From contig CAYFJX010000008.1 in the NCBI GenBank assembly GCA_964343705.1, positions 447-64,446 of the forward strand: a DNA stretch of 64,000 nt, given 5' to 3'. The position numbers were made by a program, and so were the translations under genes. This document shows, piece by piece, positions 16,684-48,204 of the stretch. Source of the stretch: an uncultured Methanosarcinales archaeon (GTDB taxonomy: Archaea; Nanobdellota; Nanobdellia; Woesearchaeales; UBA12501). Each line of letters starts with the position of its first letter. Positions within the stretch are counted from its first letter, which is position 1. The notes beneath the pieces were generated by a model. That model was not told the DNA's origin. It ran no database searches and was given only the letters and a program-made list of their open reading frames with translations.

Positions 16684-17562
16684 GTGAAAAGTAAACTAGT
16701 GTCTCATTGTTCTATTTTCACAGCATCATTAGCACTAGCATTTATTGGAGTATTCGTCAAACTTATCGACGGTGCAGTACCAAGTTTCACTATTGCTTTT
16801 TTCAGAGCACTATTAGGGTTCTTATTCCTTCTCTGTATAGTTCCATTTATAGACAAAAGTGTATTCAAGAATTTTAGGGAGAACGCGCGCAACTATGCAC
16901 TCACTGGCTTGCTTATGGCAGCAGCGTTTACTGTAGCGATTATTGCCTTAAACAATGCTCCTGTATCTAATGTGATTATGATACTCGCTACCAATGTCAT
17001 TTTTGTTGCCTTGCTAGCATCTCACTTTCTGCATGAGAAGATTACCAATCGGGAAAAGATTGCCATGGTAGTGGGAATTGTCGGTGTTGCTGTCATCAAT
17101 CCCTTCAAAGGAGGATATGCTCTTGGCAATGGTTTAGCCTTGCTTGCCGCAGTTATAGGAGCATGCCTCATTGTCTACATGCGATATGAAGGAAAAGGCC
17201 ACACACCAGGAACAAGCATGTGGTTCTTATTTTTTGCAGCTTTGTTCCTTTCACCAACACCTTTTATCTGGGGAGTTGGAGATATACTAAGTAAATGGTA
17301 CTGGATACTACTGCTTGGAATTTTGTGCACTGGCCTTGCGTACTTCCTTTTCAACTTTGGGATTGAAAATGTGAAAGCAGAAGATGTATCACTGCTTATG
17401 ATGATCAGCCAGCCAGTATTTGCAATTACCCTTGCTTACTTTCTAATTGGAGAAGTACCATCTCAGAATGTACTATGGGGAGGAGCAATCCTGTTATTGG
17501 CAGGGTTCATACTTGAATCAGGTAAGAAGTTCTGCCCAAGTCATATATTAAAGAAGATATAA
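16684..17562 (+). CDS. EamA/DMT-superfamily transporter
   Basis: 292 aa, 10 TM helices in two 5-TM repeats; GTG start after a GAGGTG SD. Confidence 0.75.
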   Translation: MKSKLVSHCSIFTASLALAFIGVFVKLIDGAVPSFTIAFFRALLGFLFLLCIVPFIDKSVFKNFRENARNYALTGLLMAAAFTVAIIALNNAPVSNVIMILATNVIFVALLASHFLHEKITNREKIAMVVGIVGVAVINPFKGGYALGNGLALLAAVIGACLIVYMRYEGKGHTPGTSMWFLFFAALFLSPTPFIWGVGDILSKWYWILLLGILCTGLAYFLFNFGIENVKAEDVSLLMMISQPVFAITLAYFLIGEVPSQNVLWGGAILLLAGFILESGKKFCPSHILKKI

Positions 17563-17572
17563 AGAAAAAAAA

Positions 17573-17806
17573 TTACATTTTTTCGAGTGCTTCCTTCATC
17601 ATAGGAAGTACTGCTTCAGCTTCTTCTTGAGTCATACGTCCAAGCTTTGCAAACTTAAGCTCGCCAGCTACGTTCTTGTTTTCCCTGCTGATTTGCATTT
17701 TTTTAACGCCCTCGTTATAAGAGCAGATTGCTACTGTAATCTTTGTTTTTTCGAATTCTACTGACTTTTCAAAGAGTCGTTGGTCTAAATTTGGGTCAAA
17801 TGGCAT
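17573..17806 (-). CDS. small cytoplasmic protein; weak resemblance to PC4/YdbC-type ssDNA-binding fold
   Basis: 77 aa from MPFDPNLDQ. Its first 17 nt are duplicated 124 nt upstream across an inserted element (see findings). Functional call is tentative. Confidence 0.5.
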   Translation of the reverse strand: MPFDPNLDQRLFEKSVEFEKTKITVAICSYNEGVKKMQISRENKNVAGELKFAKLGRMTQEEAEAVLPMMKEALEKM

Positions 17807-17930
17807 ATAGATCATCTCCGTGTTTGGTTATCAATTGAGTCGCACATCCAAGGTGAGTTCCGAATCCAATGAGGAACTCGCCCACATTTTGAGTCTTTTG
17901 TGTAACAAAAGACTTTGGGTCAAATGGCAT
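17790..17930 (-). mobile_element. 107-nt hairpin element flanked by a 17-bp direct duplication (TTTGGGTCAAATGGCAT)
   Basis: Direct repeats at 17790-17806 and 17914-17930. The insert is homologous to the one at 41312-41421, with compensatory changes in two stems. Confidence 0.55.
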
Positions 17931-18535
17931 TTTTTGTTTCCTCCGTCGTTATGATACCTAGGAAATATTTGTACTCAGTTATATAGGTTTCGATAAAATG
18001 CTCCCACTGGACACAATTTTCGTCAAAGACGAAAATGCGCATCTGAGCTTTGCTCAGATTGCACTGGACATACATGGATGGCTTTGCCTGATAAGTATTA
18101 TTTCTGCCCGAAAAGTAGCATATCTTTGGATTTTGTCAGAGTTTAACATCGCGATTAAGAGAAGTTCGGTTTTGAGGCAACCCACACCAAAAAAATTTGG
18201 GAAACATTCGGGAAATCGCTTGGCGATTTAGGCGAAGCCGACCGAATTTTCCTGATAATTCCTGTTAGTTTCTTTTCCCATACGTAGTGTGGGAAAATTT
18301 CGTCCGAAAAGTTTTTTCGGGGGCGTTCCATCTTTGGAGCGAATAGCGACTATCCAGAACATGTATCTAAGGGCACACTCATTTTACATCTATAATCTGG
18401 GAAATCTTTTACTGCTATTCAAGGGGTTCGGGGGCGAAGAAGAGCAGACTAATTATCTCTTTTAGGCGGTAATAAATGCAAAGCTTTATATAGTTAAATC
18501 CTATTTTTAGGATAAATCAAACCTAAAAAAGAAAA

Positions 18536-19147
18536 ATGCTAAAAAAATCATATCAAGTCTTGGATGTCTTTGTAACTAATCCAACTATTACATACTTATT
18601 TGGGGATGTTAAAGGGCGGATTGGTAGCAAATCAGAAAGTTATACCTACAATTCTCTTAAATCATTTGTAAAAGAAGGAATATTAACCAAAGATAAAAGA
18701 GGGGGCGTAGCAATTTACAAGATCACAGATTCCCCTAAAGCAATTTCGTTCTTATCAATGGCTGCTGAATACAAAGCATGGAATAGAAAAGGCATTCCAA
18801 TTGATAATATTATAGAAGTTATCAAAAAAGCGAAAATTAATTTTTTGACTTTGTTAATTACTGGAAGTTATGTTAAAGGAAAGCAAACAGCAAAATCTGA
18901 TCTTGATCTTGTTTTAATTGTTCCAAGTGATGTTAAGAAAATAACAGCAAGATTAAAACAATTTTGTGAGTTGAGTATTCCTGAAATTCATCTGTATGTG
19001 TTTACTGATGATGAGTTCAAGCAGATGCTACTAGATGAGAAACATAACTACGGGAAGGAAATAGTTAAAAATAATCTCGTCTTTTTTGGAGCAGAAGTCT
19101 ATTATAAAATAATGTTTGAGGCAATGAAAAATGGGTTCACTTACTGA
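18536..19147 (+). CDS. minimal nucleotidyltransferase (MNT) with N-terminal wHTH
   Basis: 203 aa; LITGSYVKGKQTAKSDLDLVLIV NTase motif; overlaps the downstream HEPN gene by 17 nt. Confidence 0.8.
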   Translation: MLKKSYQVLDVFVTNPTITYLFGDVKGRIGSKSESYTYNSLKSFVKEGILTKDKRGGVAIYKITDSPKAISFLSMAAEYKAWNRKGIPIDNIIEVIKKAKINFLTLLITGSYVKGKQTAKSDLDLVLIVPSDVKKITARLKQFCELSIPEIHLYVFTDDEFKQMLLDEKHNYGKEIVKNNLVFFGAEVYYKIMFEAMKNGFTY

Positions 19148-19616
19148 AATATATCTGGATAGATCAAATAATGAAGTCATGATAGCAGAATCTCTCAAGA
19201 GATTAACTGAGAAAGAGGAAGATAAAGAAAATTTTGATCTTCCAGAAGATATCAGCTTTTACAGCGCAGTTATTTCTCATTCGTATTATGCAATATTTTA
19301 TGCAGCAAAGGCTCTTCTTTTAACGAAGAAAATTGATACAAAAGCTCCAGAAGTTCATAAGAAAACATTTGAAGAATTTAAGAAACATTTTGTTGATACC
19401 AAAGAATTGGATATCAATTTTCTGAAAATATATAAGAAAATGATAGTCAGAGCTGATGAACTCTTACAAATATTCAAAGATGAGAAATGGAAGCGTGGTC
19501 ATTTTACTTATCAAACGATACCTCAAGCAAATAAAGAGCCTGCTGAAGATTCATTGAAAAATGCAAAATTTTTCGTCTCAAACATAATGAAGGTTGTAAA
19601 AGAATCCAAGAAGTAA
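19131..19616 (+). CDS. HEPN domain protein
   Basis: 161 aa; SHSYYAIFYAAKALLLTKKIDTKAPEVHKKTFEEF is a typical HEPN helix pair; coupled to the MNT. Confidence 0.7.
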   Translation: MGSLTEIYLDRSNNEVMIAESLKRLTEKEEDKENFDLPEDISFYSAVISHSYYAIFYAAKALLLTKKIDTKAPEVHKKTFEEFKKHFVDTKELDINFLKIYKKMIVRADELLQIFKDEKWKRGHFTYQTIPQANKEPAEDSLKNAKFFVSNIMKVVKESKK

Positions 19617-20144
19617 TATTTTTCTTTACAATTATCCCACATAAATTGAAAGAACTTTCTGTATCCATCAGCTAGCATTTTACTTTTGAGAATGAATTGT
19701 AATGGTTCTTCGTATAATTCTCCTGGCTTTACACCAACAAAAGTAACGACATAATCTCCAAAAATATCAACAGCAGTAGGACTTGAATATTCTTTAGGTA
19801 AGAAGCGATAAGGTTTTCCTACTAATTTAAGAATTTCTGGCTTTTCTTTCTTTACTTCGTGATCAAAGAGATGCATAAATTTTATTCCTCGTTTTTTTCT
19901 TTCTTTATCAAAATGTCTAAGATAATGTTGCAATCTCGGATCAAGCCAGAATGCTTTTGTTCCCATAAAATACACTGTTTGTTTTCTTTCCCGATTTAAC
20001 GAAAGCGGCACCGTTAAGAAGTAGAGGTTTACCGTCGTAGAATACGTAAGGGCAATGTAAAAATTGGATATAATTCCTGTTAAGTTCGTTTTCCGTTACG
20101 AAGTCCGGAAAACCTGCGTCCGCAGAGTAAAATATGAGTTCCAA
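19523..20144 (-). pseudogene. N-terminally truncated, frameshifted TrmB-family regulator remnant
   Basis: The 162-aa ORF aligns with the C-terminal effector half of the TrmB-like protein at 21664-22419 (FMHLFDHEVK.., YRFLPKEY.., GYRKFFQFMW vs SYRDYFNHLW). No HTH part is present. The upstream piece is in another frame and runs into the 183-bp repeat. The 3' end overruns the HEPN gene. Confidence 0.45.
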
Positions 20145-20303
20145 TTAATTCGAGGCGAAGCCGAGTCATACTGTCCGTTAGGACTGGGGGTCTGTGTTCA
20201 ATAGAAAAAGCGTAGCGTTACATCAAGAACAGGAAGAAAGGGCAATTTCTATTTTATCCAGCACGAAGTGCTACCCAGTTAAAGAGGTTAGGGGGTCGCT
20301 GTT
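20121..20303. repeat. 183-bp direct repeat, copy 1
   Basis: Identical by eye to 26043-26225; contains boxes GGGGGTCTGTG, AGGGCAATTTCT and GGGGGTCGCTG, plus GAA-triloop mini-hairpins (GGCGAAGCC, GCACGAAGTGC). Confidence 0.9.
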
Positions 20304-20362
20304 CAGCTTTAGTAAGCTTTTTAATGTTCTACATTTATCTTTAGTAAAAAGGGGTCGCTGAT

Positions 20363-21667
20363 ATGAAAGAATCCGAAATACTTGAGTTCAAGAAGTCAAC
20401 AGGAGAGTTGAAAGAGGCTGTTATTTCAATAGGTTCCATTCTCAATAAACATCAAAGAGGTGATCTTTACTTTGGCGTTAGAAATGATGGCAAAGTTATT
20501 GGTCAAACTGTTACAGAAAAAACCATTAGAGATATTTCTAAATCCATTTCTGACCACATTGAACCAAAGATTTTTCCTAGAATTAAAGAAGTTGTTTTGG
20601 AAGGAAAGAAGTGTATCCATGTTGAATTTTCTGGTAACAACATTCCCTATTACGCTTTTGGTCGGGCTTACATTAGGGTAGGCGATGAAGACAAACAATT
20701 AAGTGCAAAAGAATTGGAAAAGATGATTCTTGATAAGAATAAGGAGAAAATGGCTTGGGATAAAGAAGTCTGTAAAGAAGCCAAAGTAAGCGACATTAAT
20801 GTTGAAAAATTGAAGTGGTTTCTGAAGAAAGCAGGAAAGAGTTTTGATAATGTTGAAAACTCATTGAAAAAGTTAAGTCTTCTTTCAAAAGGAAAACTGC
20901 TTAACACTGCTGTGATTCTATTTGCTAAAAATCCAGAAAACTTTTTCCCAAATGCAAAATTACGATGTGCAGTTTTTGGGAAAACAACAGCAGTAACTAT
21001 TGATATGCAACAGTTTACAGGTGATCTGTTTACTCTGATTGAGAAAGCTGAAAAATACATTCTTGAAAATATCCACATAGGAATGAGAGTTGAAGGGATG
21101 TACAGGGTTGATGTTCCAGAAATAGATAAAGAAGCTTTTAGGGAAGCAATCATTAATGCTTTTTGCCACAGGAATTATTATCTTTATGATTCAGTGAATA
21201 TTGCCGTCTTTAAAGATAGGTTGGAAATTAGAAATCCTGGCTTACTTTATGGTGGATTGACAATTGAAAGAATCAAAAATGAAGAAGTTTCTGAGCGAAG
21301 AAATGAATTACTTGCTGAGATGTTTCACCAAATTCATTTCGTGGAGAGATGGGGTAGAGGCATTAGTCTGATTCTATCAAAAGAGCCAAAAACAGAATTT
21401 AAAGAAGTGGGAAGACAGTTTATTGTTAAATTCAAGAGGAAAGTACAAATTGTAGAAACTACCCAAAAGACTACCCAAAAGACTACCCAAAAGATAATTT
21501 CTCTGATCAAAGAAAAACCGGCAATTACAAGAGAAGAATTAGCTAAAATTCTTAATATCTCATCAGATGGTGTAAAATATCATCTTAATAATTTAAAGAA
21601 AAGTGGTGTTTTGAAAAGGGTTGGTGGAAGGAAGGAGGGCCATTGGGAGATTGTGGAGAAAAATTAG
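20363..21667 (+). CDS. AlbA_2/Schlafen-type (divergent AAA, AAA_4) ATP-binding transcriptional regulator
   Basis: 434 aa; N-terminal ESEILEFKKS box, central HATPase_c_4-like region (AINAFCHRNY, RNPG), C-terminal wHTH (ITREELAKILNISSDGVKYHLNNLKKSGVLKRVG). Confidence 0.8.
   Translation: MKESEILEFKKSTGELKEAVISIGSILNKHQRGDLYFGVRNDGKVIGQTVTEKTIRDISKSISDHIEPKIFPRIKEVVLEGKKCIHVEFSGNNIPYYAFGRAYIRVGDEDKQLSAKELEKMILDKNKEKMAWDKEVCKEAKVSDINVEKLKWFLKKAGKSFDNVENSLKKLSLLSKGKLLNTAVILFAKNPENFFPNAKLRCAVFGKTTAVTIDMQQFTGDLFTLIEKAEKYILENIHIGMRVEGMYRVDVPEIDKEAFREAIINAFCHRNYYLYDSVNIAVFKDRLEIRNPGLLYGGLTIERIKNEEVSERRNELLAEMFHQIHFVERWGRGISLILSKEPKTEFKEVGRQFIVKFKRKVQIVETTQKTTQKTTQKIISLIKEKPAITREELAKILNISSDGVKYHLNNLKKSGVLKRVGGRKEGHWEIVEKN
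21458..21493 (+). repeat. 3 x 12-bp tandem repeat (ACTACCCAAAAG) encoding TTQK x3 linker
   Basis: Seen directly in DNA and in the protein (TTQKTTQKTTQK), between the ATPase-like part and the wHTH. Confidence 0.8.
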
Positions 21668-22419
21668 GGTTTTGCTGTTTTCCATAGGTGATTAAAATAA
21701 TCCCTATAGGATTGTGCTACTTCTTTACTTCTGACGACAATTCCGATTGGTTCAGAAGACCACATTATTGTTGCGACTTTATCACCATAAATTTGAATAG
21801 ATGTTAAAGATGCAAATGAAGCAGGAAGAATTCTAACTGGCGTATATTTATATTGCTTCAATTGTTTTGCTCTGAGAATTGATTTTTTTGGGAAAATGAA
21901 TTTCATCGTTTGTTTTTGCTTTACTCTCTTATTGTGAAAAGCCGGAAGGGAATATTTCATGTGATACTTCATTGATTCAGCATCTTCAGCATACGCTCCA
22001 ATAACAAGAATTTCTTTTTTATCCTCTAACCAGTCCTGAAATATAGACTTTAGTCCTTTATTTCCCTTGTAGAGGGTAACTTCTTGAGGAGCTTTGCCTA
22101 ATTTTCGTTTATCTTCAAGCTGAGGAATAAGCTGTAAGAGTTCTTGTTTCTCTTTCTGAATTTTATCTTCTTTTTTTTCTATCACATCAATAAAATTCTT
22201 GGCATTAGCTGCCTCAAAATATTTTCTATTGGCTTTAATGACATGCGAAACAAGACCTTTGTCAATCAACTTATCTAACGTATCATAAACTGCTCCCCTG
22301 TGGAGTTCAATTTTCTTTAATATTTCTCCTGCTGTAACAGACCCTAATTCTAACAGAGCAAGGTATACTTTAATCTCGTTTCCTGTCAATCCAACTTCTT
22401 CTAGTATTTTGGTGTTCAT
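21664..22419 (-). CDS. TrmB-family transcriptional regulator
   Basis: 251 aa; N-terminal wHTH LTGNEIKVYLALLELGSVTAGEILKKIELHRGAVYDTLDKLIDKGLV, coiled linker, C-terminal effector domain. Confidence 0.8.
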   Translation of the reverse strand: MNTKILEEVGLTGNEIKVYLALLELGSVTAGEILKKIELHRGAVYDTLDKLIDKGLVSHVIKANRKYFEAANAKNFIDVIEKKEDKIQKEKQELLQLIPQLEDKRKLGKAPQEVTLYKGNKGLKSIFQDWLEDKKEILVIGAYAEDAESMKYHMKYSLPAFHNKRVKQKQTMKFIFPKKSILRAKQLKQYKYTPVRILPASFASLTSIQIYGDKVATIMWSSEPIGIVVRSKEVAQSYRDYFNHLWKTAKP

Positions 22420-22518
22420 ATTAACTCTATTGGTTGATGTTTTATTTAAATCTTTCTACTGTCATACTGCAATAGGACGACATAATTATATATAACAACG
22501 AAGTACCACTTTACCGTT

Positions 22519-23424
22519 ATGAATATAAGAGATAGACTAAATGGCTTATTTGGAATTAATATTCCAGAAGTCTATGGTGGAGAAGAACTCTCATTGCCGG
22601 ATATCGTAGAAGTAGTTGTAAATCTATCTTCGCAAGACCTAAGTGCAGCAGCTATGCTTGGATCGCATATGCGAGTAGCTCATTACATCAACCATTTTGG
22701 AACAGAAGAACAAAAAGAGAAGTTTCTATCAAAACTAGCAAGTGGAGAAATTATTGGGGCGCATGCACGGACAGAACACGAAAGCACAGTAAGAGCTACA
22801 AAAGAAAAGGATGGATATGTACTTGATGGCATAAAACCCTACGTTACTAATGCAGAGGAAGCCGGACTATTTGTAGTTACAGCCAATAGCAATAACAACA
22901 TCTTTCTTGTAGAGAGAGATACTCCTGATTTTGTTGTGGGTAAAGACATTCCTCGCACAGGTGTTTTAGGGACAAGTCTTTGTAGTGTTTATCTGAACGA
23001 TTGTAAAGTTTCTCCAAATGCCCTACTTAGTGGGACTGAAGGTCAAGCAAAAGCATATTTAGAGGAAACTAAGAAACTTGCACTCATTAATTATGTTGCA
23101 CGTACAATTGGAACACTAAAAACTCTAAAATCAATTGTTAAAGATGCGCCACCAAATGCTATTCCAAACCATGACGATCTAGTGAGAAGAGTCAACTCAC
23201 GTATCGGTGTTGCAGAGGATCTAGTTGGAGAATCAATTAGGAAGTATCAAGAATCTGATCCATCACTTGTATCTTTTCTGTCAGCAGGACGTTCTGGTTG
23301 TGTTGATTCTTGTATGAAAACACTTACTGAAATGCTATGCAGTTATACGTACACAAATATAACATTTGCTCAATTTTACCGAGATGTACCATCTCTTGCA
23401 GTAATTGGAGGTGGCCGAAGATGA
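22519..23424 (+). CDS. acyl-CoA dehydrogenase-fold protein, short and lacking the canonical C-terminal catalytic Glu
   Basis: 301 aa; ACAD middle/C-terminal blocks (GINIPEVYGGEELS, GSHMRVAHYINHFGTEEQKEKFLSKLASGEIIGA, DGYVLDGIKPYVTNA). About 55 N-terminal residues of a typical ACAD are missing. The Y-E-G-T position reads IGGG. Confidence 0.65.
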   Translation: MNIRDRLNGLFGINIPEVYGGEELSLPDIVEVVVNLSSQDLSAAAMLGSHMRVAHYINHFGTEEQKEKFLSKLASGEIIGAHARTEHESTVRATKEKDGYVLDGIKPYVTNAEEAGLFVVTANSNNNIFLVERDTPDFVVGKDIPRTGVLGTSLCSVYLNDCKVSPNALLSGTEGQAKAYLEETKKLALINYVARTIGTLKTLKSIVKDAPPNAIPNHDDLVRRVNSRIGVAEDLVGESIRKYQESDPSLVSFLSAGRSGCVDSCMKTLTEMLCSYTYTNITFAQFYRDVPSLAVIGGGRR

Positions 23425-24341
23425 TTCTTGAATCAATATTGGATAATCTAACGCCAGTTTCTCTACTTCATTTACCAAGAGAAGAAGGCTCGGCTGATAT
23501 TTACGTAGCGTTGTTACATACTTTGCCAATGGGAAGCCACAAAATTCTTGCAGCAAAATCCATGATAGAAGATGCAGAACACACACATACAATAACAGAC
23601 GAAACTGTATTTGTAGATCAATCTTCAGGTAACGCTGCTTCTGCCGAAGCTTTTGTTTGTGCAACAAAAGGATACAGGTATGAGTGTTTTATGCCAGAAA
23701 GCATGGCTCCTGAAAAAATACAACAAGTTCTCGCCTGTGGGGGAATTATTCACTTTACTCCGGCGGAAGAATTTGTTGATAGCGCAAAGAAAATAGCAGA
23801 GGCATACTGTGAAGAAAATCCAGAAAGGAGGATATATCTTGATCAAAGTGTAAATCCTGCAAGCCCTAGAGGATACGAACCGATTGGAAGACAATTTATT
23901 AGTTTGCTACCATCAATTGATGCTTTTGTCTCTGGTGGTGGAACATATGGTACAATAACTGGGATTTCACGTGTCTTGAAGAAACATGATGAAAGCATTC
24001 AAGTTACTTGTGTTGAATCTGTCTATGCTCCTCGTCTTCATTCTCGCAGAAATAATTATTCCATGCCCAAATTTAGAGGACAAAAGATTACTGGATTTGG
24101 GGGAGAAGTTCTGCAAAGCAATGCTCAGCCAGAATTATATGATAATGTTGTTTTGACAGACGAAGAAAAAGCGATTCAACATCTCCGTAAGCTTCACAGA
24201 TCTGGTCTTCTTGTTGGTAAAAGTTCGGCAGCAGTTCTTCAAGTAGCACAAGATGTAGCAAGAAATCTGGGAGATGGTAAAATTGTAGTGACAAATACAT
24301 ACGACTCGTTCTCAAAAATGATTTCTGAAGGAATCTACTAA
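23421..24341 (+). CDS. PLP-dependent cysteine synthase/threonine dehydratase-fold enzyme (fold type II)
   Basis: 306 aa from MILESILD (ATGA overlap with the upstream stop). GSHKILAAKSMI matches the GS.K.R.A..MI PLP-lysine motif; Gly-rich SGGGTYGTITG phosphate loop. Confidence 0.7.
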   Translation: MILESILDNLTPVSLLHLPREEGSADIYVALLHTLPMGSHKILAAKSMIEDAEHTHTITDETVFVDQSSGNAASAEAFVCATKGYRYECFMPESMAPEKIQQVLACGGIIHFTPAEEFVDSAKKIAEAYCEENPERRIYLDQSVNPASPRGYEPIGRQFISLLPSIDAFVSGGGTYGTITGISRVLKKHDESIQVTCVESVYAPRLHSRRNNYSMPKFRGQKITGFGGEVLQSNAQPELYDNVVLTDEEKAIQHLRKLHRSGLLVGKSSAAVLQVAQDVARNLGDGKIVVTNTYDSFSKMISEGIY

Positions 24342-24353
24342 AGAGGATAAAAA

Positions 24354-25820
24354 ATGTGCGGCATTGCAGGAATTATCGGAGACAATTCTGACAAGGAAGC
24401 TGAAGGCTTAATTAGTAAGCTTTATCATAGAGGGCCAGACGACCAAGGCTATTGGAATAATGATAGCGCTCTTCTAGCTTCTACAAGGTTGATGATAACT
24501 AGTGATCAAGACGAAGGAGTACAACCATTCGTCAAAGGAGATTATGTGCTAGTCTTTAATGGTGAAATATTCAATTACAGATCATTAGGAACACATAAAA
24601 CAGATACAGAAGTGTTGATGGACGGATTGATCCACGAGGGAAATTCTTTTCTTCAAAAATTGGATGGACAGTTTGCTTTAGCATTTTATGATGCTAAACA
24701 TGATAAGATGTTGCTTGCTAGAGATCATTTGGGAAGAATGCCTCTATTCTATACTCTTTCGGAAGATGGACGATTTATTTTTGCTTCTGAAGTGAAAGCA
24801 ATATTTTCGGTTGGTGTGCAAGCTGAATTAAAAGAGGATGAAAATTTTAGATACCAGTGGAGCAATCAGATACCAACGACAAATGAGACAATATTTGAAA
24901 ATGTTTACCAAGTTCTGCCGGGTGAATTTTTGGTCATTAACAGGGGAGTTGGTAGGAGACAGTATTATACGCTTACACAACCACCTATTTTAGATAAACC
25001 TGAATCGTATTTTCTAGAACGGCTCCCAAGTATTTTGGAGGGTTCTGTTGCGAGAGAATTGACAGGGAATGCAAAAATAGGATTATCTTTCTCTGGAGGT
25101 GTAGATTCAACCATAGTGCTTAAGGTTTTAAGTGAAAGACTTCCGTATCGTCCTGTAGCAATCGCTGCTTTTCGTGATGAAGAACATTTTGATGTTGTAA
25201 GAGAAGCTTCTGAATTGTATGGAGCAGATCTTGTTGAACTAAAACTTGACAGAGGAATAGTAAAAGATCTCCCTAGAGTTCTTTATGCGACAGAAACGTA
25301 TGGTATGGGACATGGAATTGAATTACTTCATTATGCGATATCAAAGGAAGCTAAGAAACGAGGAGTTAAAGTGTTTATGTGTGGAGCAGGAATAGATGAA
25401 GAATTTTTAGGATATGAACATTTTTCGGATTCTCCGTCAGCTGAAGAAAGATTTAATGAGACAAGTCAATTGTTTAATTCACATTTATATGTTAGAGATA
25501 GGACTAGAATGGCTCATGGAATTGAAGCTAGGTGTCCATTTGTTAATAGGCAGTTAGTTGAATTTGCGTTAAGAGTGCCGGTGCAGTATTGTGTTAATGA
25601 ATCTGGGGCGAAGCAGGTCATGAGAAAAGCAGCTGGTACTTTTTTACCAGAAAAGTTTGCTAATTTGCCAAAAATTCAGTCTTACACTCACTCAAATATT
25701 TTTAGTTTGATACAGGAAGAGTTAGGAGTTAGAACAAATGAAGAATATATGGAGATATGTCATGATTTGGTAAAGCAGATGTTTGTAGATGGAAAAGATG
25801 TTGATGCAGTGAAATTATAA
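24354..25820 (+). CDS. asparagine synthase (glutamine-hydrolysing)-like amidotransferase
   Basis: 488 aa; N-terminal nucleophile MCGIAGI, Ntn-GATase blocks, PP-loop SFSGGVDS. Confidence 0.85.
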   Translation: MCGIAGIIGDNSDKEAEGLISKLYHRGPDDQGYWNNDSALLASTRLMITSDQDEGVQPFVKGDYVLVFNGEIFNYRSLGTHKTDTEVLMDGLIHEGNSFLQKLDGQFALAFYDAKHDKMLLARDHLGRMPLFYTLSEDGRFIFASEVKAIFSVGVQAELKEDENFRYQWSNQIPTTNETIFENVYQVLPGEFLVINRGVGRRQYYTLTQPPILDKPESYFLERLPSILEGSVARELTGNAKIGLSFSGGVDSTIVLKVLSERLPYRPVAIAAFRDEEHFDVVREASELYGADLVELKLDRGIVKDLPRVLYATETYGMGHGIELLHYAISKEAKKRGVKVFMCGAGIDEEFLGYEHFSDSPSAEERFNETSQLFNSHLYVRDRTRMAHGIEARCPFVNRQLVEFALRVPVQYCVNESGAKQVMRKAAGTFLPEKFANLPKIQSYTHSNIFSLIQEELGVRTNEEYMEICHDLVKQMFVDGKDVDAVKL

Positions 25821-26042
25821 AGCGACCCCCCATTTTAGTTTTTAGAAATTGCCCTATTAAATTAAATTTCTTTTTCATAGAAAAAGTCTAAATGTGCGTC
25901 AGCACCACAGACCCCCTCTTTTTTTAGAACTCAAATTTTATTGAAACTAACATCCGAATTCAGATGTTAAGTTCGTCGAGTTACGAGTGACCGAAGGGAA
26001 CGGAGTGGCGAGACCAAGATTTAACTCCGAAGGAGATTAAAT

Positions 26043-26225
26043 CGCAGAGTAAAATATGAGTTCCAATTAATTCGAGGCGAAGCCGAGTCATACTGTCCGT
26101 TAGGACTGGGGGTCTGTGTTCAATAGAAAAAGCGTAGCGTTACATCAAGAACAGGAAGAAAGGGCAATTTCTATTTTATCCAGCACGAAGTGCTACCCAG
26201 TTAAAGAGGTTAGGGGGTCGCTGTT
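26043..26225. repeat. 183-bp direct repeat, copy 2
   Basis: Identical by eye to 20121-20303, offset 5922 bp. Weaker homology continues upstream (TGTTAAGTTCGT at about 20088 and about 25963). Confidence 0.9.
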
Positions 26226-26277
26226 TTTGGAAAATTTAGTAGTAAAATATATAAATATCAAAGAACTTTAGGTTGAT

Positions 26278-26424
26278 ATGGAAACAGTTACAATCCCAAA
26301 AGAAGAATACGAAATGCTCAAGCACAAAGCCGAAGTAGATGAGGATTTATTAGTTTCATTAGTTAGAGGGCTTGAGGATATTAAAGCTGGTCGCATTAAG
26401 CCATGGAAAGGCTTCACAAATTAA
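26278..26424 (+). CDS. possible 48-aa antitoxin-like protein (METVTIPKEEYEMLKHKAEVDEDLLVSLVRGLEDIKAGRIKPW...)
   Basis: Short ORF below the track cutoff. Composition resembles small archaeal antitoxins, but it is convergent with, not upstream of, the RelE-like gene. Confidence 0.3.
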   Translation: METVTIPKEEYEMLKHKAEVDEDLLVSLVRGLEDIKAGRIKPWKGFTN

Positions 26425-26728
26425 GCTTCTTTTTAATCTCTTCTTGATAGTGTGGAATGAGTGATTTTATCTTGTCAATAGCATCCTGTTGATCTTTCTT
26501 GGTGCTGATTGTTATCACAAAGACAACAACGTACTCCTCATACACAAGATAATAAACACGATAATTCATAATTTTCTTCTCTCTAAAGAAGGGATAACTT
26601 AATTGCTTTCCAACAAATGGATTATCCTCAAGTTGATCAATTTCTTTGGCGATTGCTCGTTGCAACTGTTTATCTAACTTTTTGTATCGCCTATCAAATT
26701 CATCTGTAGTGAAGATTTTGTAACCCAT
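26414..26728 (-). CDS. RelE/ParE-superfamily toxin
   Basis: 104 aa; F.KRYKKL...L...I...I..L..NPF.GK.L, then YRVYYLV and VVVFVITISTKKD, the usual RelE/StbE pattern. Confidence 0.7.
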   Translation of the reverse strand: MGYKIFTTDEFDRRYKKLDKQLQRAIAKEIDQLEDNPFVGKQLSYPFFREKKIMNYRVYYLVYEEYVVVFVITISTKKDQQDAIDKIKSLIPHYQEEIKKKLNL

Positions 26729-26832
26729 TTTTAATGGAAAAGATTGAATTGATATAAAAGTTCTTTGGTAGTGTTTAAGCTGTTGCTGTACCCCACATTA
26801 TCTTAAAAAATTGATCGTACGATTCAGCAGCT

Positions 26833-27162
26833 TTGACAGCAGAACAGATAGCTGAATTTTTTGGTCAGATTGTTGAAGTCAGAAAAAAATATCCAAAAGA
26901 AGTTTTAGAAATAAAACCTCATGGAAATTTTGGACCAAGACCTGGATCAAAAGGAGAGACTTTAGCAAATGAAAATAGTTACTGTCCTGCTGGAAGGAAT
27001 TTAGTTACAATTGATCCACAGAATAGAGTTTATGGCTGTCCATTCTCTATGCATCCAAACAGTGTAATTGGTAGATATGAAAATGGACAAATAGTAATAG
27101 ACAAAGAATTGCTTGGTGGAAGAAGAAATACCTGTATTACGCATCTTTTGACATCAAGCTAG
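26833..27162 (+). pseudogene. C-terminal fragment of a radical-SAM/SPASM-domain protein
   Basis: Only the SPASM-like Cys region is present (YCPAGRNLVTIDPQNRVYGCPFS). No CxxxCxxC core and no ATG (the track start is TTG). Confidence 0.5.
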
Positions 27163-27433
27163 TTATTTCTTTTTTTTCAATTCTTGCCCATCTCATAATT
27201 CGCCCTTTCTCGATTGGATTTAATTCGTGTTAAATCCTACCGACTACGAAGTGGGAGGTACAAGGTTTAAGTTCCGAAGGAACATTAAACCGCAGAGTAA
27301 AATTTAAGTTTACATCAATCACCCGAAGGGTTCATATATTTTAGGACTCTCTCACGTTTTACATAAATTTAGAACATCAAGGGCAATCTCTACTTACAGT
27401 TTTTACATCCGTTTATTTCGGCACAGAGTTTTT

Positions 27434-28580
27434 TTAGGGAGAACTTCTTTTAATTAAGGTATTTGTGTGATTTTGATAAATGTATTTTTTTGGGGTTAGA
27501 ATAGTGGTTGTTTTTTGTGTTTATTTTGTTTTTATTTGTTGTTTTTTTACTTTTTTAAGAGTGCTTTCGCTAGGTTGAGAGTAGGAATCGTAGTCGGTGG
27601 ATGTTGTATGCTGCGTATTGGAATATTTGTTGTATGAATACTCTTCCTGTTGTGGTGAGTTTTGTTCGTCCTCCTTTGAAAACTCTACTAATTGTTGCTA
27701 AAGGATGTTCTCCTCGACAACGTGATTTTGTTATTCTTTTGTTCCGTAGTTTTTGTTTGGGTGTTAGGTTGCCTCTTTTCATTGTTGCGTTACCTTTTGC
27801 TTTTGTTGGTGACCCACTGTAACAACGATCACGTTTTATTATTTCATCTGGCTTTGCCAGATCAATATGCCCATCAAAAACTTTTGCAGTGGCAACTGCA
27901 AGCTTTGTCACTAGCTTAGTTCCTTCATCAACTTTGAAATGAGTTTTGTAACCAAAGAAACTTTTCTTTCCTTTCTTTGTCCATGTCGCGTCTTTATTAC
28001 GACTTGTTTTTGCTTCCCTACCACGATTTATTTTATCACTACTCTGCTTTTTACCAGGATCAGCAACAACAAAAGTCGCATCCTGAATTTTACCCTCTTT
28101 CAAAATAATATTGTTTTTAGCAAATTCTTTTTGGAGTGCACTCCAAAAAGAGTCAATCAAACCTTCTTCCTGAAGCCACTCACGATAAGCCCAAATAGTT
28201 TTAGCATCAGGAATATGAGCATAACCCAAAAAATTTCGAAAATCAAACCTGTTATAACACTGATATTCAAGCTCCTCATCACTCACATTATGCCACGCCT
28301 GAAGACACAATACTTTAAGCATTACAACATGAGGTATCGGACGACGACCAGCTTTTTCAGGAGTCCTATCAGGAAGAGAACCAGCAAGAGCCCCCCAATC
28401 AACCAAATCATGCACCTCCTGCAAAACACACTTACGCTTAACAACCTCCTTAAACTTCTCACTCAAAACAAAATCAACCAAAGTCCCCATAAAAAAACAC
28501 CTCACTTTTTTATAAACTATCGACGACAAAACAAGTATAAATAATTTACTATTTCAAACAATTAATAGAAATTCTCTAAA
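27434..28580 (-). mobile_element. IS5-family insertion sequence (about 1.15 kb)
   Basis: Imperfect terminal inverted repeats TTAGGGAGAACTTCTTTTAATT (about 27434-27455) and AATTAATAGAAATTCTCTAA (about 28561-28580) enclose one DDE transposase gene. Boundaries are approximate. Confidence 0.5.
27570..28529 (-). CDS. IS5-family DDE transposase (DUF772 N-terminal + DDE_Tnp_1)
   Basis: GRRPIPHVVMLKVLCLQAWHNVSDEELEYQCYNRFDFRNFLG (InsH N-terminal), DATFVVAD, DATWTKKGKKSFFGYKTHFKVDEGTKLV..A.VFDG, AAYNIHRL. The likely true start is Met14 (MGTLVDF, about 28490). Confidence 0.8.
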   Translation of the reverse strand: MSSIVYKKVRCFFMGTLVDFVLSEKFKEVVKRKCVLQEVHDLVDWGALAGSLPDRTPEKAGRRPIPHVVMLKVLCLQAWHNVSDEELEYQCYNRFDFRNFLGYAHIPDAKTIWAYREWLQEEGLIDSFWSALQKEFAKNNIILKEGKIQDATFVVADPGKKQSSDKINRGREAKTSRNKDATWTKKGKKSFFGYKTHFKVDEGTKLVTKLAVATAKVFDGHIDLAKPDEIIKRDRCYSGSPTKAKGNATMKRGNLTPKQKLRNKRITKSRCRGEHPLATISRVFKGGRTKLTTTGRVFIQQIFQYAAYNIHRLRFLLST

Positions 28581-28599
28581 GATAACTTTGAATTGGTGG

Positions 28600-28935
28600 A
28601 TAGCTTAGGGGGGACTTTTTATGTGCCTTTTAAAAACAACAGTAAAGGCTCTGGAAATGGTATGATTTGGAAGATAAATGTATCATTATTTCATGCTGAA
28701 TAATGAAGAATATTTACAGCACTATCACTCAAGAAGCAACGCAGAAAGTACAGTAAACATGATAAAAAGTAAATTCGGAGATAGAGTAAGAAGTAAACTA
28801 TGGACAGCACAGATTAATGAAGTGCTTTGTAAAATCATAGCCCATAATATCTGTTGTGTAATAATGGAAATGAACGAATTAGGATTAGAAAGCAATTTTT
28901 GCCCGAATAGTCAAGTAGTTGCCCGAAATGTCTAA
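28600..28935 (+). pseudogene. 3' remnant of a second transposase gene, frameshifted and truncated by the IS5-like insertion
   Basis: YVPFKNNSKGSGNGMIWK in one frame continues as MYHYFMLNNEEYLQHYHSRSNAESTVNMIKSKFGDRVRSK...AHNICC in another. This is a transposase C-terminal pattern, and the fragment begins right at the IS end. Confidence 0.5.
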
Positions 28936-29006
28936 CTTTTCATGGACTTATCGGGCAAAGCCTACATGGACGCAAAGCTTATATAGCTCGAAACCCTTAC
29001 GGAAAT

Positions 29007-29765
29007 ATGGTAAAAAGGTTAAAAAAAGAGCAGGTTGAGAATATATTTAGGCTTACAAAAAAAGGCATATCACTAAATAGAATAGAGAAGATTACTGGTT
29101 TAAAAAAGACAACCATCTATTATCATTTTAGAAAGATTAAGCCTAAAACAACCCAACCAATAATAGTTAATTCAGAAAATGATGAGTTGATAGGTGAAGT
29201 TGTAGGCTTATTTGCAGGAGATGGATCTTGTGATATAATGAAAAAAGGCAAATATAGAGTGAGACTCCATTTTAATATAACTGAAAAAGAATTTGTTAGA
29301 AAACTAAATGAAGATGTCCTAAAAAACATTTTTGGAAAAGAGCCCATGGTTTTTAGACAGGAAAATAGATTAAATCTTTGCTATTACTCAAAAAACATTC
29401 ATTTGTTACTTAACACTTACCTGACTTGGGATAAGTCAAGGAGAAAAACTTATTCTGTACAATTAAAGACACATAATCACCCCCTGGCTTTTTGTAAAGG
29501 TTTTATAAGAGGTTCTTTAGATAGTGATGGGTGTTTATCTGACAAAAAAATCAGTTTCGCAACAGTGTCACCTGGCTTAAAGGACAACATATCTTTTTTT
29601 CTGGAACAATTAGACATAAAACATTCAGTAAGAAAATATAAAGAGAAGAGATCAAACAGAAAGGACATTTACCACATTAATGTTATGAGAAAAGAACATG
29701 GTAGATTCATGGACATCATAAAACCAAGGAATATAAAGGGACTGAATGCACCAGCCGAGATTTGA
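29007..29765 (+). CDS. free-standing LAGLIDADG homing endonuclease-like protein with N-terminal HTH
   Basis: 252 aa; two LAGLIDADG motifs (VVGLFAGDGSC and FIRGSLDSDGCL). TTATATA box about 25 nt upstream, so possibly leaderless. The 3' end overlaps tRNA-Gly on the other strand. Confidence 0.8.
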   Translation: MVKRLKKEQVENIFRLTKKGISLNRIEKITGLKKTTIYYHFRKIKPKTTQPIIVNSENDELIGEVVGLFAGDGSCDIMKKGKYRVRLHFNITEKEFVRKLNEDVLKNIFGKEPMVFRQENRLNLCYYSKNIHLLLNTYLTWDKSRRKTYSVQLKTHNHPLAFCKGFIRGSLDSDGCLSDKKISFATVSPGLKDNISFFLEQLDIKHSVRKYKEKRSNRKDIYHINVMRKEHGRFMDIIKPRNIKGLNAPAEI

Positions 29766-29845
29766 ATTTCCGAACGCTCAGTCCCAAAACGTTTCTCGGA
29801 CCGCCGGCTTGGAAGGCCAGAATCCTACCATTAGACTACTGGTGC
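29747..29845 (-). tRNA. tRNA-Gly(UCC) with a roughly 28-nt non-canonical intron between the T-stem 5' strand and the T-loop
   Basis: GCACCAG/CTGGTGC acceptor; anticodon arm CTGGC-CTTCCAA-GCCGG. T-arm CCGAG...TTCAAAT-CTCGG is interrupted by AAACGTTTTGGGACTGAGCGTTCGGAAA (about 29767-29794). Mature length about 71 nt. Confidence 0.75.
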
Positions 29846-30605: not shown

Positions 30606-31742
30606 ATGAAAAAAAAGGTTGTGATAGTAACTGATAATTTCATCCCAAAAAGGGATGGAGTAACACGCTTTCTAAAGAATGTTGTACAAGAAATTAGTGA
30701 TAAATACACCATCACTATTCTGGCACCTTCATACAGTAGTTCATACACCACAGAAGAATTTCATGGTGCAAGTGTTATTCGTTTTCCGGTTTCAAGACTT
30801 GTAGGATTAGGAGGCTACAATGCAGTACTTGTGAGACCAAGCAAAATAAAACCCTACCTGCATGATGCAGACATTGTCTGGCTTAATAGTATGTCACCCT
30901 TTTGTACTTCTGCTTTGCGAGCTGCAAAACAATTGGACAAACCAGTTATTGCCTACAAGCATGCGATTGACTGGGATCTAGCGTCACACATGGCAGTTAA
31001 GTCAAAGATGATGAAGAAGTTGGTACGCTTTGGCCTTAAACAACCATTAAAGTACTTGTACAACAAGTGCGATCTTGTAATGGTCTCATCAAAGAACATT
31101 GCACGACACCTAACTGAGCAAGGTATTAAGACCAAGAAAACAATTATTCCATTGGGTGTTGATTGTGATTCATTTGTTGCTACAAAAGATAAAGATGCTG
31201 CAAAGGAAAAGCTAGGAATTAACGCTGAGCGTATAGTTGTGGGGTACTGCGGCCGTCTGAGTACTGAGAAGGATATTCCAACACTTGTAAAAGCCTTTTC
31301 TCGATTGCACCATCGTTATTTTAATTTATACCTCCTTATTGTAGGAGATGGTAATAGGAAAACAGTGACAGAATATGCAAAAAAGAATTATAGGATCACT
31401 GGCATGGTTGATGATGTTGTTCCCTACCTGCAAGCAATGGATATTTTTGTGTTGCCTTCTCTGACTGAGACTACTTCCTTGGCAACATTGGAAGCCATGA
31501 GTTGCGGTGTTCCTCCTATTGCAACACCAGTGGGGCATGTACGAGAGTATATTGAAAATAACTTTAATGGTATGCTGTTCCCTCGTGAAAATGTTGACGT
31601 GTTACAAGGACGCATTGAAAAGCTCATCAAAGATCCTGTAAAGCGAAAGCGAATGGGGGAATTGGCTAGGAAGACAATAACGACAAAATATAGTTGGGAA
31701 AGGACTATTGTACAGATAGATAGGGTATTAAGTAAGTATTGA
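30606..31742 (+). CDS. GT4-family (GT-B) glycosyltransferase
   Basis: 378 aa; C-terminal E.TSLATLEAMSCGVPPIAT (EX7E region). Confidence 0.8.
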   Translation: MKKKVVIVTDNFIPKRDGVTRFLKNVVQEISDKYTITILAPSYSSSYTTEEFHGASVIRFPVSRLVGLGGYNAVLVRPSKIKPYLHDADIVWLNSMSPFCTSALRAAKQLDKPVIAYKHAIDWDLASHMAVKSKMMKKLVRFGLKQPLKYLYNKCDLVMVSSKNIARHLTEQGIKTKKTIIPLGVDCDSFVATKDKDAAKEKLGINAERIVVGYCGRLSTEKDIPTLVKAFSRLHHRYFNLYLLIVGDGNRKTVTEYAKKNYRITGMVDDVVPYLQAMDIFVLPSLTETTSLATLEAMSCGVPPIATPVGHVREYIENNFNGMLFPRENVDVLQGRIEKLIKDPVKRKRMGELARKTITTKYSWERTIVQIDRVLSKY

Positions 31743-31765
31743 GTGAATAGTATGTGTAAAACAAG

Positions 31766-32521
31766 ATGGCCTTCAGATATAACCTCTTACAAAGAATACT
31801 AAAGAAAGTATATAGAAAATTCGATCCAGTTCCAAAGTCTCCTTGGACCCAGGGTCCTGTCTCTGATATTTGCGAAATCAATCTTGTACCCCCAGAAAAA
31901 TTAAAAATCTTCTTTGCTAAGTGCATAAAAACATTGCAAAAAAGTAAGGGAAAAGATATAGGTGCGTATCTTGAATTCGGAGTTTTTAATGGGTCTTCAA
32001 TGGCAAGCATGTATCAAACAGCAAAAAACATGGGGCAAGACTCAATGCAGTTTTTTGGGTTTGATGCATTCAGAGGACTACATAAGAATGCGGAAAAAGA
32101 GGATGGAGGAGTTTGGAAAAGAGGTCACTATTCTTGCTCATTTGCAAACCTGAAAAAGTGCTTAAAGAAAAAAAGCGTTAATCCAAGCAAGATCAATTGG
32201 ATCAGAGGATGGTATAATACCACACTAAATAAGCAAACAATCAAAAAATATAAAATTAAAAATCCTGGTATAGTTTTCATTGATTGTGACACATATAGTG
32301 CATCAAAAAAAGTACTTGACTTTGTTACTCCCCTAATCACCAGACCAGTCATTATATGTCTTGATGACTGGAAACTAAATGATCTTGACATTAAAGGAAT
32401 GGGAGAATATAGAGCCTTCAATGAGTTCTTGGAAAAAAATACCCATTTGCAAGCACAAGAGATGAGGTCTTATAACCGGAAATCAAAGGCATTTCTGGTC
32501 ATGCCAAAAAACAAAGGTTAA
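31766..32521 (+). CDS. TylF/MycF-like class I SAM-dependent methyltransferase
   Basis: 251 aa; GAYLEFGVFNGSSM (SAM loop) and IVFIDCDTYSASKKVLDF (metal-binding Asp pair pattern). Confidence 0.6.
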   Translation: MAFRYNLLQRILKKVYRKFDPVPKSPWTQGPVSDICEINLVPPEKLKIFFAKCIKTLQKSKGKDIGAYLEFGVFNGSSMASMYQTAKNMGQDSMQFFGFDAFRGLHKNAEKEDGGVWKRGHYSCSFANLKKCLKKKSVNPSKINWIRGWYNTTLNKQTIKKYKIKNPGIVFIDCDTYSASKKVLDFVTPLITRPVIICLDDWKLNDLDIKGMGEYRAFNEFLEKNTHLQAQEMRSYNRKSKAFLVMPKNKG

Positions 32522-32541
32522 AGAGAAAGATAAAAAAGAAA

Positions 32542-32778: not shown

Positions 32779-32851
32779 CTGTTTTAATCCTTAGTGTCTT
32801 CAAGAACATTTAGATTTATAAAGTTTATGAAAAAGAAAAGAAAAAGAAGAA

Positions 32852-44703: not shown

Positions 44704-44704
44704 G

Positions 44705-48181: not shown

Positions 48182-48204
48182 GGTATCATTGATGAAATGG
48201 TTGC

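Follow-up and report, generated by a model that had tools for sequence, protein, structure and literature searches.

In the 64,000-nt stretch of contig CAYFJX010000008.1 analysed here (the window), two direct repeats of 183 bp bracket a segment of five genes that is quite probably present in some members of the sampled population and absent from others. Our best explanation, which we hold with moderate confidence, is an array of boundary elements in which recombination between neighbouring copies gives rise to this polymorphism. Each repeat would be the body of an R-end, the two R-ends belonging to adjacent units of one co-oriented array of DPANN cassette-boundary elements, and the two bodies would have been made identical by gene conversion or recent recombination. 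Recombination within their identity would then remove or insert 5,922 bp, namely one R body, the five genes, an L-end and the second 5' arm, with both haplotypes coexisting in the population. The element family itself appears not to be described in Rfam or in the searchable literature.

As a preliminary description of the window had stated, positions 20121-20303 and 26043-26225 are 100% identical over 183 nt; the distance between them is 5,922 bp. The identity ends abruptly left and right in both copies: the sequence immediately to the left reads ...TTTTCCGTTACGAAGTCCGGAAAACCTGCGTC at copy 1 and ...AAGATTTAACTCCGAAGGAGATTAAAT at copy 2, and the flanks to the right bear no resemblance to each other. 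Weaker similarity had also been reported upstream of both copies, and this holds insofar as each carries a 5' arm of the family type; the arms, however, belong to different subtypes, with one hairpin at copy 1 and several at copy 2. The gene content between the repeats agrees, by Pfam, with what had been listed. The features of the segment and its borders are the following:

20063-20120 (+): 5' arm of copy 1, class A type, with the TGTTAAGTTCG box, a single GAA-loop hairpin and CCTGCGTC
20121-20303 (+): 183-nt repeat copy 1, an R-end body, with the core CGCAGAGTAAAATATGAGTTCC, hairpins 3 and 4, GGGGGTCTGTG, CATCAAGAACAGG, AGGGCAATTTCTA and the terminal GGGGGTCGCTGTT
20351-20359 (+): additional GGGGTCGCT motif directly before the AlbA_2 start codon, with an inverted partner at 25821-25829
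20363-21667 (+): regulator with AlbA_2, HATPase_c_4 and winged helix-turn-helix domains (Pfam)
21664-22419 (-): TrmB (Pfam)
22519-23424 (+): acyl-CoA-dehydrogenase-like protein (Pfam)
23337-24341 (+): PALP enzyme (Pfam)
24354-25820 (+): AsnB-type amidotransferase (Pfam)
20363-25820 (mixed strands): the cargo of five genes as a whole, the same five being found on cassette contigs of four samples, 5993 nt long in at least two of them
25821-25969 (+): L-end, after the asnB stop codon, composed of AGCGACCCCCC .. AGAAATTGCCCT .. hairpin .. CACAGACCCCC .. GAACTCAAATTTTATTGAAACTAACA
25953-25982 (+): L-R junction, a candidate core-type recombinase site, with inverted boxes AACTAACATC / GATGTTAAGTT around the 8-nt spacer CGAATTCA
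25973-26042 (+): 5' arm of copy 2, a multi-hairpin subtype unlike that of copy 1 (class B match at 26000-26177 by profile hidden Markov model, HMM)
26043-26225 (+): 183-nt repeat copy 2, an R-end body, followed by TTTTT

The polymorphism is documented by independent assemblies. Exact-protein look-ups led to contigs from six samples (ERR2281799-804) of one study, PRJEB17505, with 99.9-100% identity to the window. Five MEGAHIT or Logan assemblies of this study all break exactly at the repeat: the left-flank contig stops at 20303, the right-flank contigs begin at 26099, and in at least two samples (ERR2281801 and ERR2281802) the entire cassette is one contig of 5,993 nt (20177-26169), made of the unique part and a k=127 overhang into the repeat at both ends. 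These contig ends are what a de Bruijn graph yields where a 183-nt repeat is entered by two paths and left by two, so that a fault of any single assembly does not explain the repeat. The five cassette genes occur on cassette contigs in four samples. The segment had been suspected of being unstable, and a deleted allele with exactly one repeat copy is indeed found in the sister sample ERR2281804, where a contig of 1,147 nt (L036 in our numbering of loci and contigs) joins 19906-20303 directly to 26226-26974, with 5,922 bp missing. At 1,146 of its 1,147 positions this contig matches the predicted sequence of flank, one R and flank, the sole difference being T to C at repeat offset 29. In agreement, the AlbA_2, TrmB and AsnB proteins were found in samples 799-802 only. 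HEPN, ParE, a 48-residue and a 109-residue open reading frame (ORF) extend beyond these, to sample 803, sample 804 or both; HEPN occurs in five samples and ParE in four, and together they span 799-804.

Several observations weigh against this explanation. The cassette-less allele is one 1147-nt contig, in a sample with short neighbouring contigs; the k=127 de Bruijn graph fits the order U-R-C-R-D and the order U-R-D plus a circle equally well; no circular form was seen; and the R of the empty allele differs by one single-nucleotide polymorphism (SNP) from both window copies, which simple deletion and simple insertion both fail to predict. In further sequencing runs the locus is covered only 1-6x, as contigs, and no informative joints were found; an apparent joint from 18269 to 20085 reflects another copy of the family and no deletion. 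Missing junction k-mers could have made the cassette-less contig a chimera; the private SNP and the cassette genes not found in samples 803 and 804 argue against this.

How the segment came and went can be read to some extent from the arms. The cassette-less haplotype consists of the 5' arm of copy 1 (TTACGAAGTCCGGAAAACCTGCGTC), one R body and the right flank of copy 2. Because it retains the arm of copy 1, an integron-type crossover at G|TT is excluded for the window event: a GTT-to-GTT exchange would leave the arm of copy 2, and after insertion of a circle at GTT the arms would stand in opposite order. The indel is best explained by exchange inside the 183-nt identity, either homologous or site-specific at the conserved core, and of these two we lean toward ordinary RadA-type homologous recombination. 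The identity begins exactly at CGCAGAG, the meeting point of the differing 5' arms and the common body, and two other loci (L052 and L113) are identical up to ...TAAAATTTGAGTT / ...CGCAGAGTAAAATTTGAGTT and unrelated beyond. Both observations keep the core as a possible preferred breakpoint; they are equally expected if homology simply ends there. A mosaic is also seen between loci L019 and L077, where identity is about 98-100% downstream of the element and in its 3' part, about 93% in its 5' half and about 70%, with compensatory changes, in the 5' domain. As the two window copies are identical although their arms are of different subtypes and the other two window copies are of other classes, gene conversion or recombination between them was likely recent. 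The SNP of the empty allele requires one additional step under every model. Two other ideas were abandoned: '5'-arm-only' copies, which had seemed to favour crossover at the core, are full class C variants that lack about 60 nt internally, and a duplicated promoter does not fit a repeat that stops about 60 nt before both downstream start codons, with unrelated sequences beyond.

Both repeats are members of an element family with about 70 loci, in genomes and metagenomes of Woese-, Pace- and Nanoarchaeota. Its most conserved part, the 18-nt pattern CGCAGAGTAAAATNTNAGTT, matches 24 archaeal contigs among GTDB species representatives, most of them labelled Woese-, Pace- or Nanoarchaeota; several are labelled Methanosarcinales, and we suspect mislabelled metagenome-assembled genomes (MAGs). 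Full or partial elements lie in MAGs labelled Eubacteriales or Methanosarcinales (L029, which is CAYUXD010000023.1, L009, L013, L014, L020 and L023), and another contig from a MAG so labelled (L018) holds the search pattern only, with no element; all of these contigs are probably mis-binned or mislabelled DPANN. Bacterial matches to the 18-mer (L006, L011, L016, L025, L033) are due to chance and find no HMM support. With a 19-nt version of the pattern, 106 stretches were recovered from JGI/ENA metagenomes and 3 from viral contigs, and the element profile is significant in 49 of the 109 stretches fetched from these scans. By blastn, similarity between the window and these loci is restricted to the elements; the neighbouring genes are unrelated, with no synteny.

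In an alignment of 42 near-full copies, the conserved span runs from CTGTTAAGTTCG to AAGGGCAATTT, and 12 of the 24 consensus pairs show double compensatory changes. The hairpin loops are nearly all three-base GNA loops closed by C-G, and hairpin 2 keeps a conserved T.G wobble on the + strand. The class A HMM matches copy 1 at 20063-20266 (E=4e-53), and the hairpin of its 5' arm covaries over the 42 copies. ORFs inside the element were judged non-coding, since they are shared by no more than 10 and 6 of about 50 copies and are absent in the window. Searched with Rfam 15 at gathering thresholds, the whole window returned two tRNAs only; in 17500-29000 of the window, in L019 1650-2100 and in L010 1150-1900 there were chance matches far below gathering scores (best E=0.013, an unrelated mir-129). 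On DPANN cassette systems or repeats, the literature search returned only the archaeal integron paper (Ghaly et al. 2022, PMC9668308), whose supplement does not contain the genomes used here.

The architecture of the loci is that of repeated units. In the R-end, of about 250 nt, a TGTTAAG box is accompanied by a 5' arm that varies between copies, by the conserved core CCGCAGAGTAAAATTTGAGTTCC and by several small hairpins in a row. Over all loci the order of a unit is R-end, 0.7-5.5 kb of genes, L-end (about 150 nt) and often the next R-end, and the alternation of R, cargo and L is seen in more than 25 loci; in 38 of the 40 loci having at least two modules, all modules lie on one strand. The cargo is accessory or defence-like (MNT-HEPN, ParE, TrmB-like regulators, methyltransferases, restriction-modification, small ORFs). 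The window has four R-ends and one L-end by profile HMMs, all on the + strand, and its R-ends fall into three classes: A-like (copies 1 and 2), B and C. The earlier suggestion of a cassette array separated by structured recombination sites therefore stands as far as layout is concerned, with structured, co-oriented elements between accessory modules; a crossover of the integron type at GTT does not stand for the window event.

The L-end of the window (HMM match at 25839-25969, E=2e-29) is conserved in at least 12 other loci, as judged from an alignment with 12 homologues. Four of its blocks are complementary to blocks of the R-end, in nested order and inverted relative to R:

L-end block ATTGCCCT, R-end partner AGGGCAAT
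L-end block GGAACCCCCTA, R-end partner TAGGGGGTTCC
L-end block GGAACTCAAATTTTA, R-end partner TAAAATTTGAGTTCC
L-end terminal block GAACTTAACA, R-end partner TGTTAAGTTC

One of the paired blocks, G5/C5, covaries between R and L (GGGGGTCTGTG/CACAGACCCCC, GGGGGTCTGAG/CTCAGACCCCC, GGGGGTTCC/GGAACCCCC) and does so by subfamily, with GTCTGTG/CACAGAC in the window and GTCTGAG/CTCAGAC in L135 and L145. The exact 9-mer GGGGTCGCT occurs in the window at 20292, 20351 and 26214 (+) and at 25821 (-), and nowhere else. Where an L-end is directly followed by an R-end, as at 25821-26225, the two make up a palindrome of roughly 400 nt, a long multi-branched hairpin. The fold of this unit is significant against dinucleotide shuffles (z=-6.3 as RNA, z=-6.7 as DNA), and against simple shuffles the L-R units of the window, L077, L060, L145 and L014 range from z=-3.4 to -6.3. 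For two further L-R intervals, one of class B, the fold was not significant; neither was that of the 296 nt around copy 2 alone (z=-0.7 and -1.4), significance being reached only by the whole L-to-R interval. At the junction itself, other copies have homologous TAACA...TGTTA boxes that enclose a covarying insert, from 3 nt up to a multi-helix domain of about 90 nt; between L019 and L077 this domain keeps its helices despite about 30% sequence divergence.

That the family provides recombination sites for a XerA-like tyrosine recombinase, in an integron-like cassette system, is a serious possibility, though we stop short of favouring it. The preliminary description had noted no recombinase gene, and neither a tyrosine nor a serine recombinase is in fact encoded in the 64-kb window, where mobility enzymes are limited to an IS5-like DDE transposase and LAGLIDADG endonucleases. 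This counts against such a role, as do the position of the window junction, which is not at the hairpin GTT, so that the event gives no direct support to site-specific exchange there, and the orientation of the cargo relative to the R-to-L direction, which is mixed, unlike that of integron cassettes. In other genomes the association is found. Among 148 ORFs from 13 array loci, Phage_integrase is one of the recurrent families, and in five loci (L008, L022, L026, L027, L103) a recombinase gene of 266-278 codons lies on the same strand as the elements, directly after L-end, hairpin and TGTT, that is, in the position of the next R-end. The best model for the five proteins is XerA_Arch (NF040815; 192-236 bits, cut-off 220). 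Against the integron-integrase model TIGR02249 they reach 169-195 bits, below the cut-off of 265, in two stretches with the middle of the model skipped; the listed stretch ends near position 180-183 in L022 and L026 and starts at 237-241 in L008, L027 and L103.

A search with the L103 protein delimits a tight clade at 62-73% identity, with the next drop to about 47%. Three of its members, a small sample found independently of the R-end pattern, were fetched with context (L163, L165, L167). Upstream of the recombinase in L163, an L-end-like tail and a hairpin are seen by eye, with no L-end HMM match there, the sole profile match being a fragment of R type that lies upstream at about 1 kb; boxes of the TAACA/TGTTA type are present in L165 and, most clearly, in L167. 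Three contigs found through the recombinase break off 130-200 nt before its gene, where a repeat would account for the break. A conserved motif CACTGGWCA, mostly preceded by G, was also noted 60-100 nt upstream of the recombinase start in L022, L103, L163, L165 and L167; it may be an operator or promoter element.

Would the elements act as DNA at all? We regard it as rather unlikely, yet worth weighing, that the R-end is instead a structured small RNA (sRNA) gene of about 170-300 nt, which starts at a TATA-like box upstream of TGTTAAG and ends at a T-run after AAGGGCAATTT. The L-end would then be a complementary partner, for example in the 3' untranslated region of the preceding cargo, the inverted repeats IR2-IR4 would be sites of RNA-RNA or RNA-DNA pairing, and the cassette polymorphism would be a by-product, with near-identical sRNA genes giving the homology for RadA-mediated deletion. 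The R sequence is strongly conserved across Woese-, Pace- and Nanoarchaeota, single-stranded stretches included, far above the conservation of attC sites; a TATA-like word is found in 29 of 36 copies and a T-run in 21 of 36; and k-mers of the element occur in at least 18 metatranscriptome runs (groundwater, lakes, sediments, salt lakes), at contig depths of up to 45. These three lines of evidence are no less compatible with an RNA gene than with a DNA site, and to that extent weaken the case for recombination sites. Compensatory changes in all hairpins, the conserved + strand wobble in hairpin 2 and an element orientation independent of the neighbouring genes are likewise in keeping with an sRNA.

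Other features are harder to reconcile with an RNA. No Rfam family matches the element even at E<10, and the counts of G.U versus A.C (13 versus 9) give no clear strand asymmetry. The loops are nearly all C-GNA-G triloops, an extra-stable mini-hairpin motif of DNA that is uncommon in RNA. Since the metatranscriptome contigs are unstranded, may include DNA and stem from many different copies, this evidence is weaker than it looks, and T-runs and TATA-like words are common at 36% GC. An sRNA alone also leaves unexplained the co-oriented R...L arrays and a recombinase exactly in the R position. Triloops, co-oriented arrays, the recombinase in the R position, mosaic breakpoints and the TAACA/TGTTA boxes all speak for a DNA role, probably as a single strand. 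The two roles are not mutually exclusive. A more speculative proposal, with odds well below even, is an undescribed DPANN cassette system with cargo between an R-end and an L-end, whose ends would fold into a junction of about 400 nt that is read by a XerA-type recombinase lacking the integron-specific domain. The folding would take place in single-stranded DNA, or in an RNA transcript paired with the opposite end; the system would be an integron analogue of independent origin, or one in which RNA aids the pairing of ends.

It is improbable that each unit is a transposon of the foldback kind, with R-end and L-end as its long terminal inverted repeats and the genes as its cargo, or one like a miniature inverted-repeat transposable element (MITE), moved in trans by a transposase, with the 5.9-kb segment as one of its insertions in tandem. 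Such a transposon could account for the terminal inverted repeat GTTAAGTTC / GAACTTAAC and three subterminal inverted blocks, for the many truncated and degenerate copies, for contigs that often stop at elements, as expected of multi-copy repeats, and for homology between otherwise unrelated loci that is limited to the elements. The indel, however, runs from R to R (5,922 bp) and not from terminus to terminus (20078-25965), the empty allele keeps the 5' arm of copy 1 and a full R, and no target-site duplication is visible at 20078/25965. Random transposition would not lead one to expect co-orientation in 38 of 40 loci. Of the enzymes encoded beside the elements the tyrosine recombinase alone is recurrent, no transposase being so, and the IS5-like gene of the window is not flanked by R and L. 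Without a duplication, with non-random orientation and with units that carry cargo, the family is not one of MITEs. Very improbable, finally, is a product of assembly, in which the chromosome would read flank-R-flank and the five genes would sit on a separate 5.9-kb circle sharing R, or the cassette-less contig would be chimeric through missing junction k-mers: the repeat of 183 nt exceeds the assembly k of 127, so that the graph is identical under either resolution, both ends of every cassette contig lie inside R, and the low contig coverage of the further runs is compatible with it, but five genes with no replication, partition or integration function, a private SNP that marks a distinct haplotype, the cassette genes not found in two samples whose assemblies contain both flanks, and the same R...cargo...L-R layout on long contigs of unrelated genomes all speak against it.

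We thus return to an array of boundary elements with recombination from R to R. DPANN archaea have tiny genomes and depend on hosts, and little is understood of how their accessory genes (defence, toxin-antitoxin, regulators, small biosynthetic units) are gained and lost. The boundary element is easily recognised, marks variable cassettes across Woese-, Pace- and Nanoarchaeota and is linked to a specific clade of Xer-like recombinases. It offers a handle for mapping flexible genome regions in MAGs and explains many contig breaks, and the family is a testable candidate for another route, independent of IntI, by which cassettes could be exchanged. Should the elements be RNAs instead, they would constitute an abundant, widespread and unannotated archaeal RNA family.

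Outside the bracketed segment, the window is an archaeal chromosome (A-type ATP synthase operon, H+-pyrophosphatase, SMC, intron-bearing tRNA), with further units of the array on both sides:

18250-18472 (+): R-end of class C, a short variant without hairpins 3-4, which opens the MNT-HEPN unit (nhmmer, class C HMM, E=1.4e-49)
18536-19616 (+): MNT (18536-19147) and HEPN (19131-19616), the cargo of the class C unit (Pfam NTP_transf_2, HEPN)
19523-20011 (-): N-terminally truncated TrmB-like paralogue of 162 residues, C-terminal domain only
26278-27162: cargo of the next unit, with a 48-residue antitoxin-like ORF (+), a ParE-family toxin at 26414-26728 (-) and a 109-residue ORF (+) (Pfam ParE_toxin; gene calls on sister contigs)
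27209-27440 (+): R-end of class B (class B HMM, E=1e-80)
27570-28529 (-): IS5-like DDE transposase with DUF772 and DDE_Tnp_1, cargo or an insertion after the class B element (Pfam)

Diverged copies had been placed near 18230-18450 and 27240-27420, upstream of the MNT-HEPN pair and the IS, and the class C and class B elements bear this out; a partial copy proposed at about 3690-3720 was detected by none of the four family HMMs. The class B copy has 88-95% identity (blastn) to copies in other MAGs (L005, L010, L020, L027, L140), and MNT-HEPN pairs also adjoin family elements in L005, L010 and L013. The truncated paralogue, which does abut copy 1 as reported, is related to the TrmB of the segment (BLASTP/tblastn E=3e-12 and 2e-11) and covers only residues 123-250, approximately, of six full-length TrmB-like relatives, with the N-terminal 120 or so missing. 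Its supposedly frameshifted extension (19941-20144) shows no significant TrmB similarity, the ORF there running through the 5' arm of the element. Between the truncated gene and copy 1 (19993-20066) lies a vestigial junction with inverted boxes GATTTAAC / GTTAAGAAG 12 nt apart, which continues as a stump ending TAAGGGCAATGT and looks like a heavily deleted further unit. The IS5-like gene was called with 311 residues in one sample and 306 in another (L034/L035), and L035 differs from the window at one position, a hint of slight variation of the IS among strains.

Elsewhere, the SMC gene at 35413-40542 (-) is oversized (1,709 residues, matching SMC_N and SMC_hinge) and most likely bears the one Intein_splicing and one LAGLIDADG ORF match of the same scan. 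A 99-nt tRNA at 29747-29845 (-), found by Rfam (44.8 bits) and missed by ARAGORN, probably contains an intron, and its end overlaps the stop of a free-standing LAGLIDADG_3 ORF at 29007-29765 (+). At 43606-62615 (-) there are six large tandem paralogous ORFs of 365-1,171 residues, with internal repeats of 142-194 nt and a GC content of 0.42-0.47, above the rest of the window; surface or secreted proteins would be our guess. The cumulative GC skew peaks at about 31000-33000, a possible replication origin or terminus; gene strand shifts from mostly + to mostly - at about 33 kb, and all family elements lie to the left of there, on the + strand.

Of the known systems, integrons come closest in layout. 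Their cassette arrays, and clusters of attC sites lacking integron integrases (CALINs), include archaeal ones; the integron integrase is a tyrosine recombinase with an IntI-specific additional domain around patch III; and the published Nanoarchaeota attC reads ACATAACAAATC...GGTTATGG (Ghaly et al. 2022, PMC9668308). An attC site is taken here as an imperfect palindrome of 55-140 nt with R''-L''...L'-R' boxes, an unpaired spacer and extrahelical bases, conserved in structure and not in sequence. Like integrons and CALINs, the family forms co-oriented arrays of structured, palindromic sites between short accessory cargos (toxin-antitoxin, methylases, regulators); its ..TAACA.. / ..TGTTA.. boxes at the base of the variable hairpin recall R''/R', a resemblance and not a match; a tyrosine recombinase gene stands at one array end in related loci, and most arrays have none on the same contig. 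Unlike integron integrases, the XerA-like recombinases (266-278 residues) lack the IntI-specific domain and stay below the integron-integrase cut-off, and they are co-directional with the array, in the place of the next R-end, next to cargo of mixed orientation. The site is about 400 nt long, its sequence being conserved over about 190 nt to one side and 130 nt to the other, and unlike published archaeal attC sites it has no separate L''/L' box pair and no unpaired 5-6-nt spacer; its boxes TAACA/TGTTAAG enclose a variable insert, with one extra T in the 3' half, and the junction hairpin of the window measures only 29 nt. The one polymorphism seen in the window did not cross over at GTT. With a recombinase lacking the IntI domain, a site that departs from the canonical attC and an event away from GTT, the family lies outside integrons as defined.

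A second comparison is with Xer-dependent modules, such as the pdif modules of Acinetobacter plasmids and IMEX elements, and with cer/psi sites, which have accessory arms of about 180 bp. By analogy, the family may share with the former gene modules bounded by inverted sites and a Xer-family recombinase encoded elsewhere, and with cer/psi a long accessory sequence beside a short core. The window junction AACTAACATC-CGAATTCA-GATGTTAAGTT fits inverted arms of about 11 bp around a spacer of 6-8 bp. Unlike dif, however, there is no conserved 11-6-11 28-mer: the window has a 10-8-11 arrangement, and an insert of 3 to about 90 nt takes the place of the spacer in other copies. The arms are also hairpin-rich and much longer, and the hosts are archaea. 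With repetitive extragenic palindromic sequences and bacterial interspersed mosaic elements (REP/BIME), enterobacterial repetitive intergenic consensus (ERIC) sequences and MITEs, the family has in common that it is multi-copy, intergenic, palindromic and often at gene 3' ends, and that copies degenerate or are truncated; it differs from them in having two distinct ends kilobases of cargo apart, co-orientation over whole loci and conservation across DPANN orders, with no RAYT or HUH protein associated.

The window event is most like deletion between direct repeats, or insertion of the Campbell type: the 183-nt repeats are identical, a second haplotype has exactly one copy and nothing between, and the junction may lie anywhere inside the identity. 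Repeats born of random duplication would not be expected to belong to a conserved family whose other window copies are far more diverged, or to have an identity bounded exactly by the family core on one side and the element end on the other. The event that first drew attention to the window is best read as an ordinary repeat-mediated indel, and the family of elements that lies behind it, widespread in DPANN archaea, appears to be undescribed in Rfam and the searchable literature.

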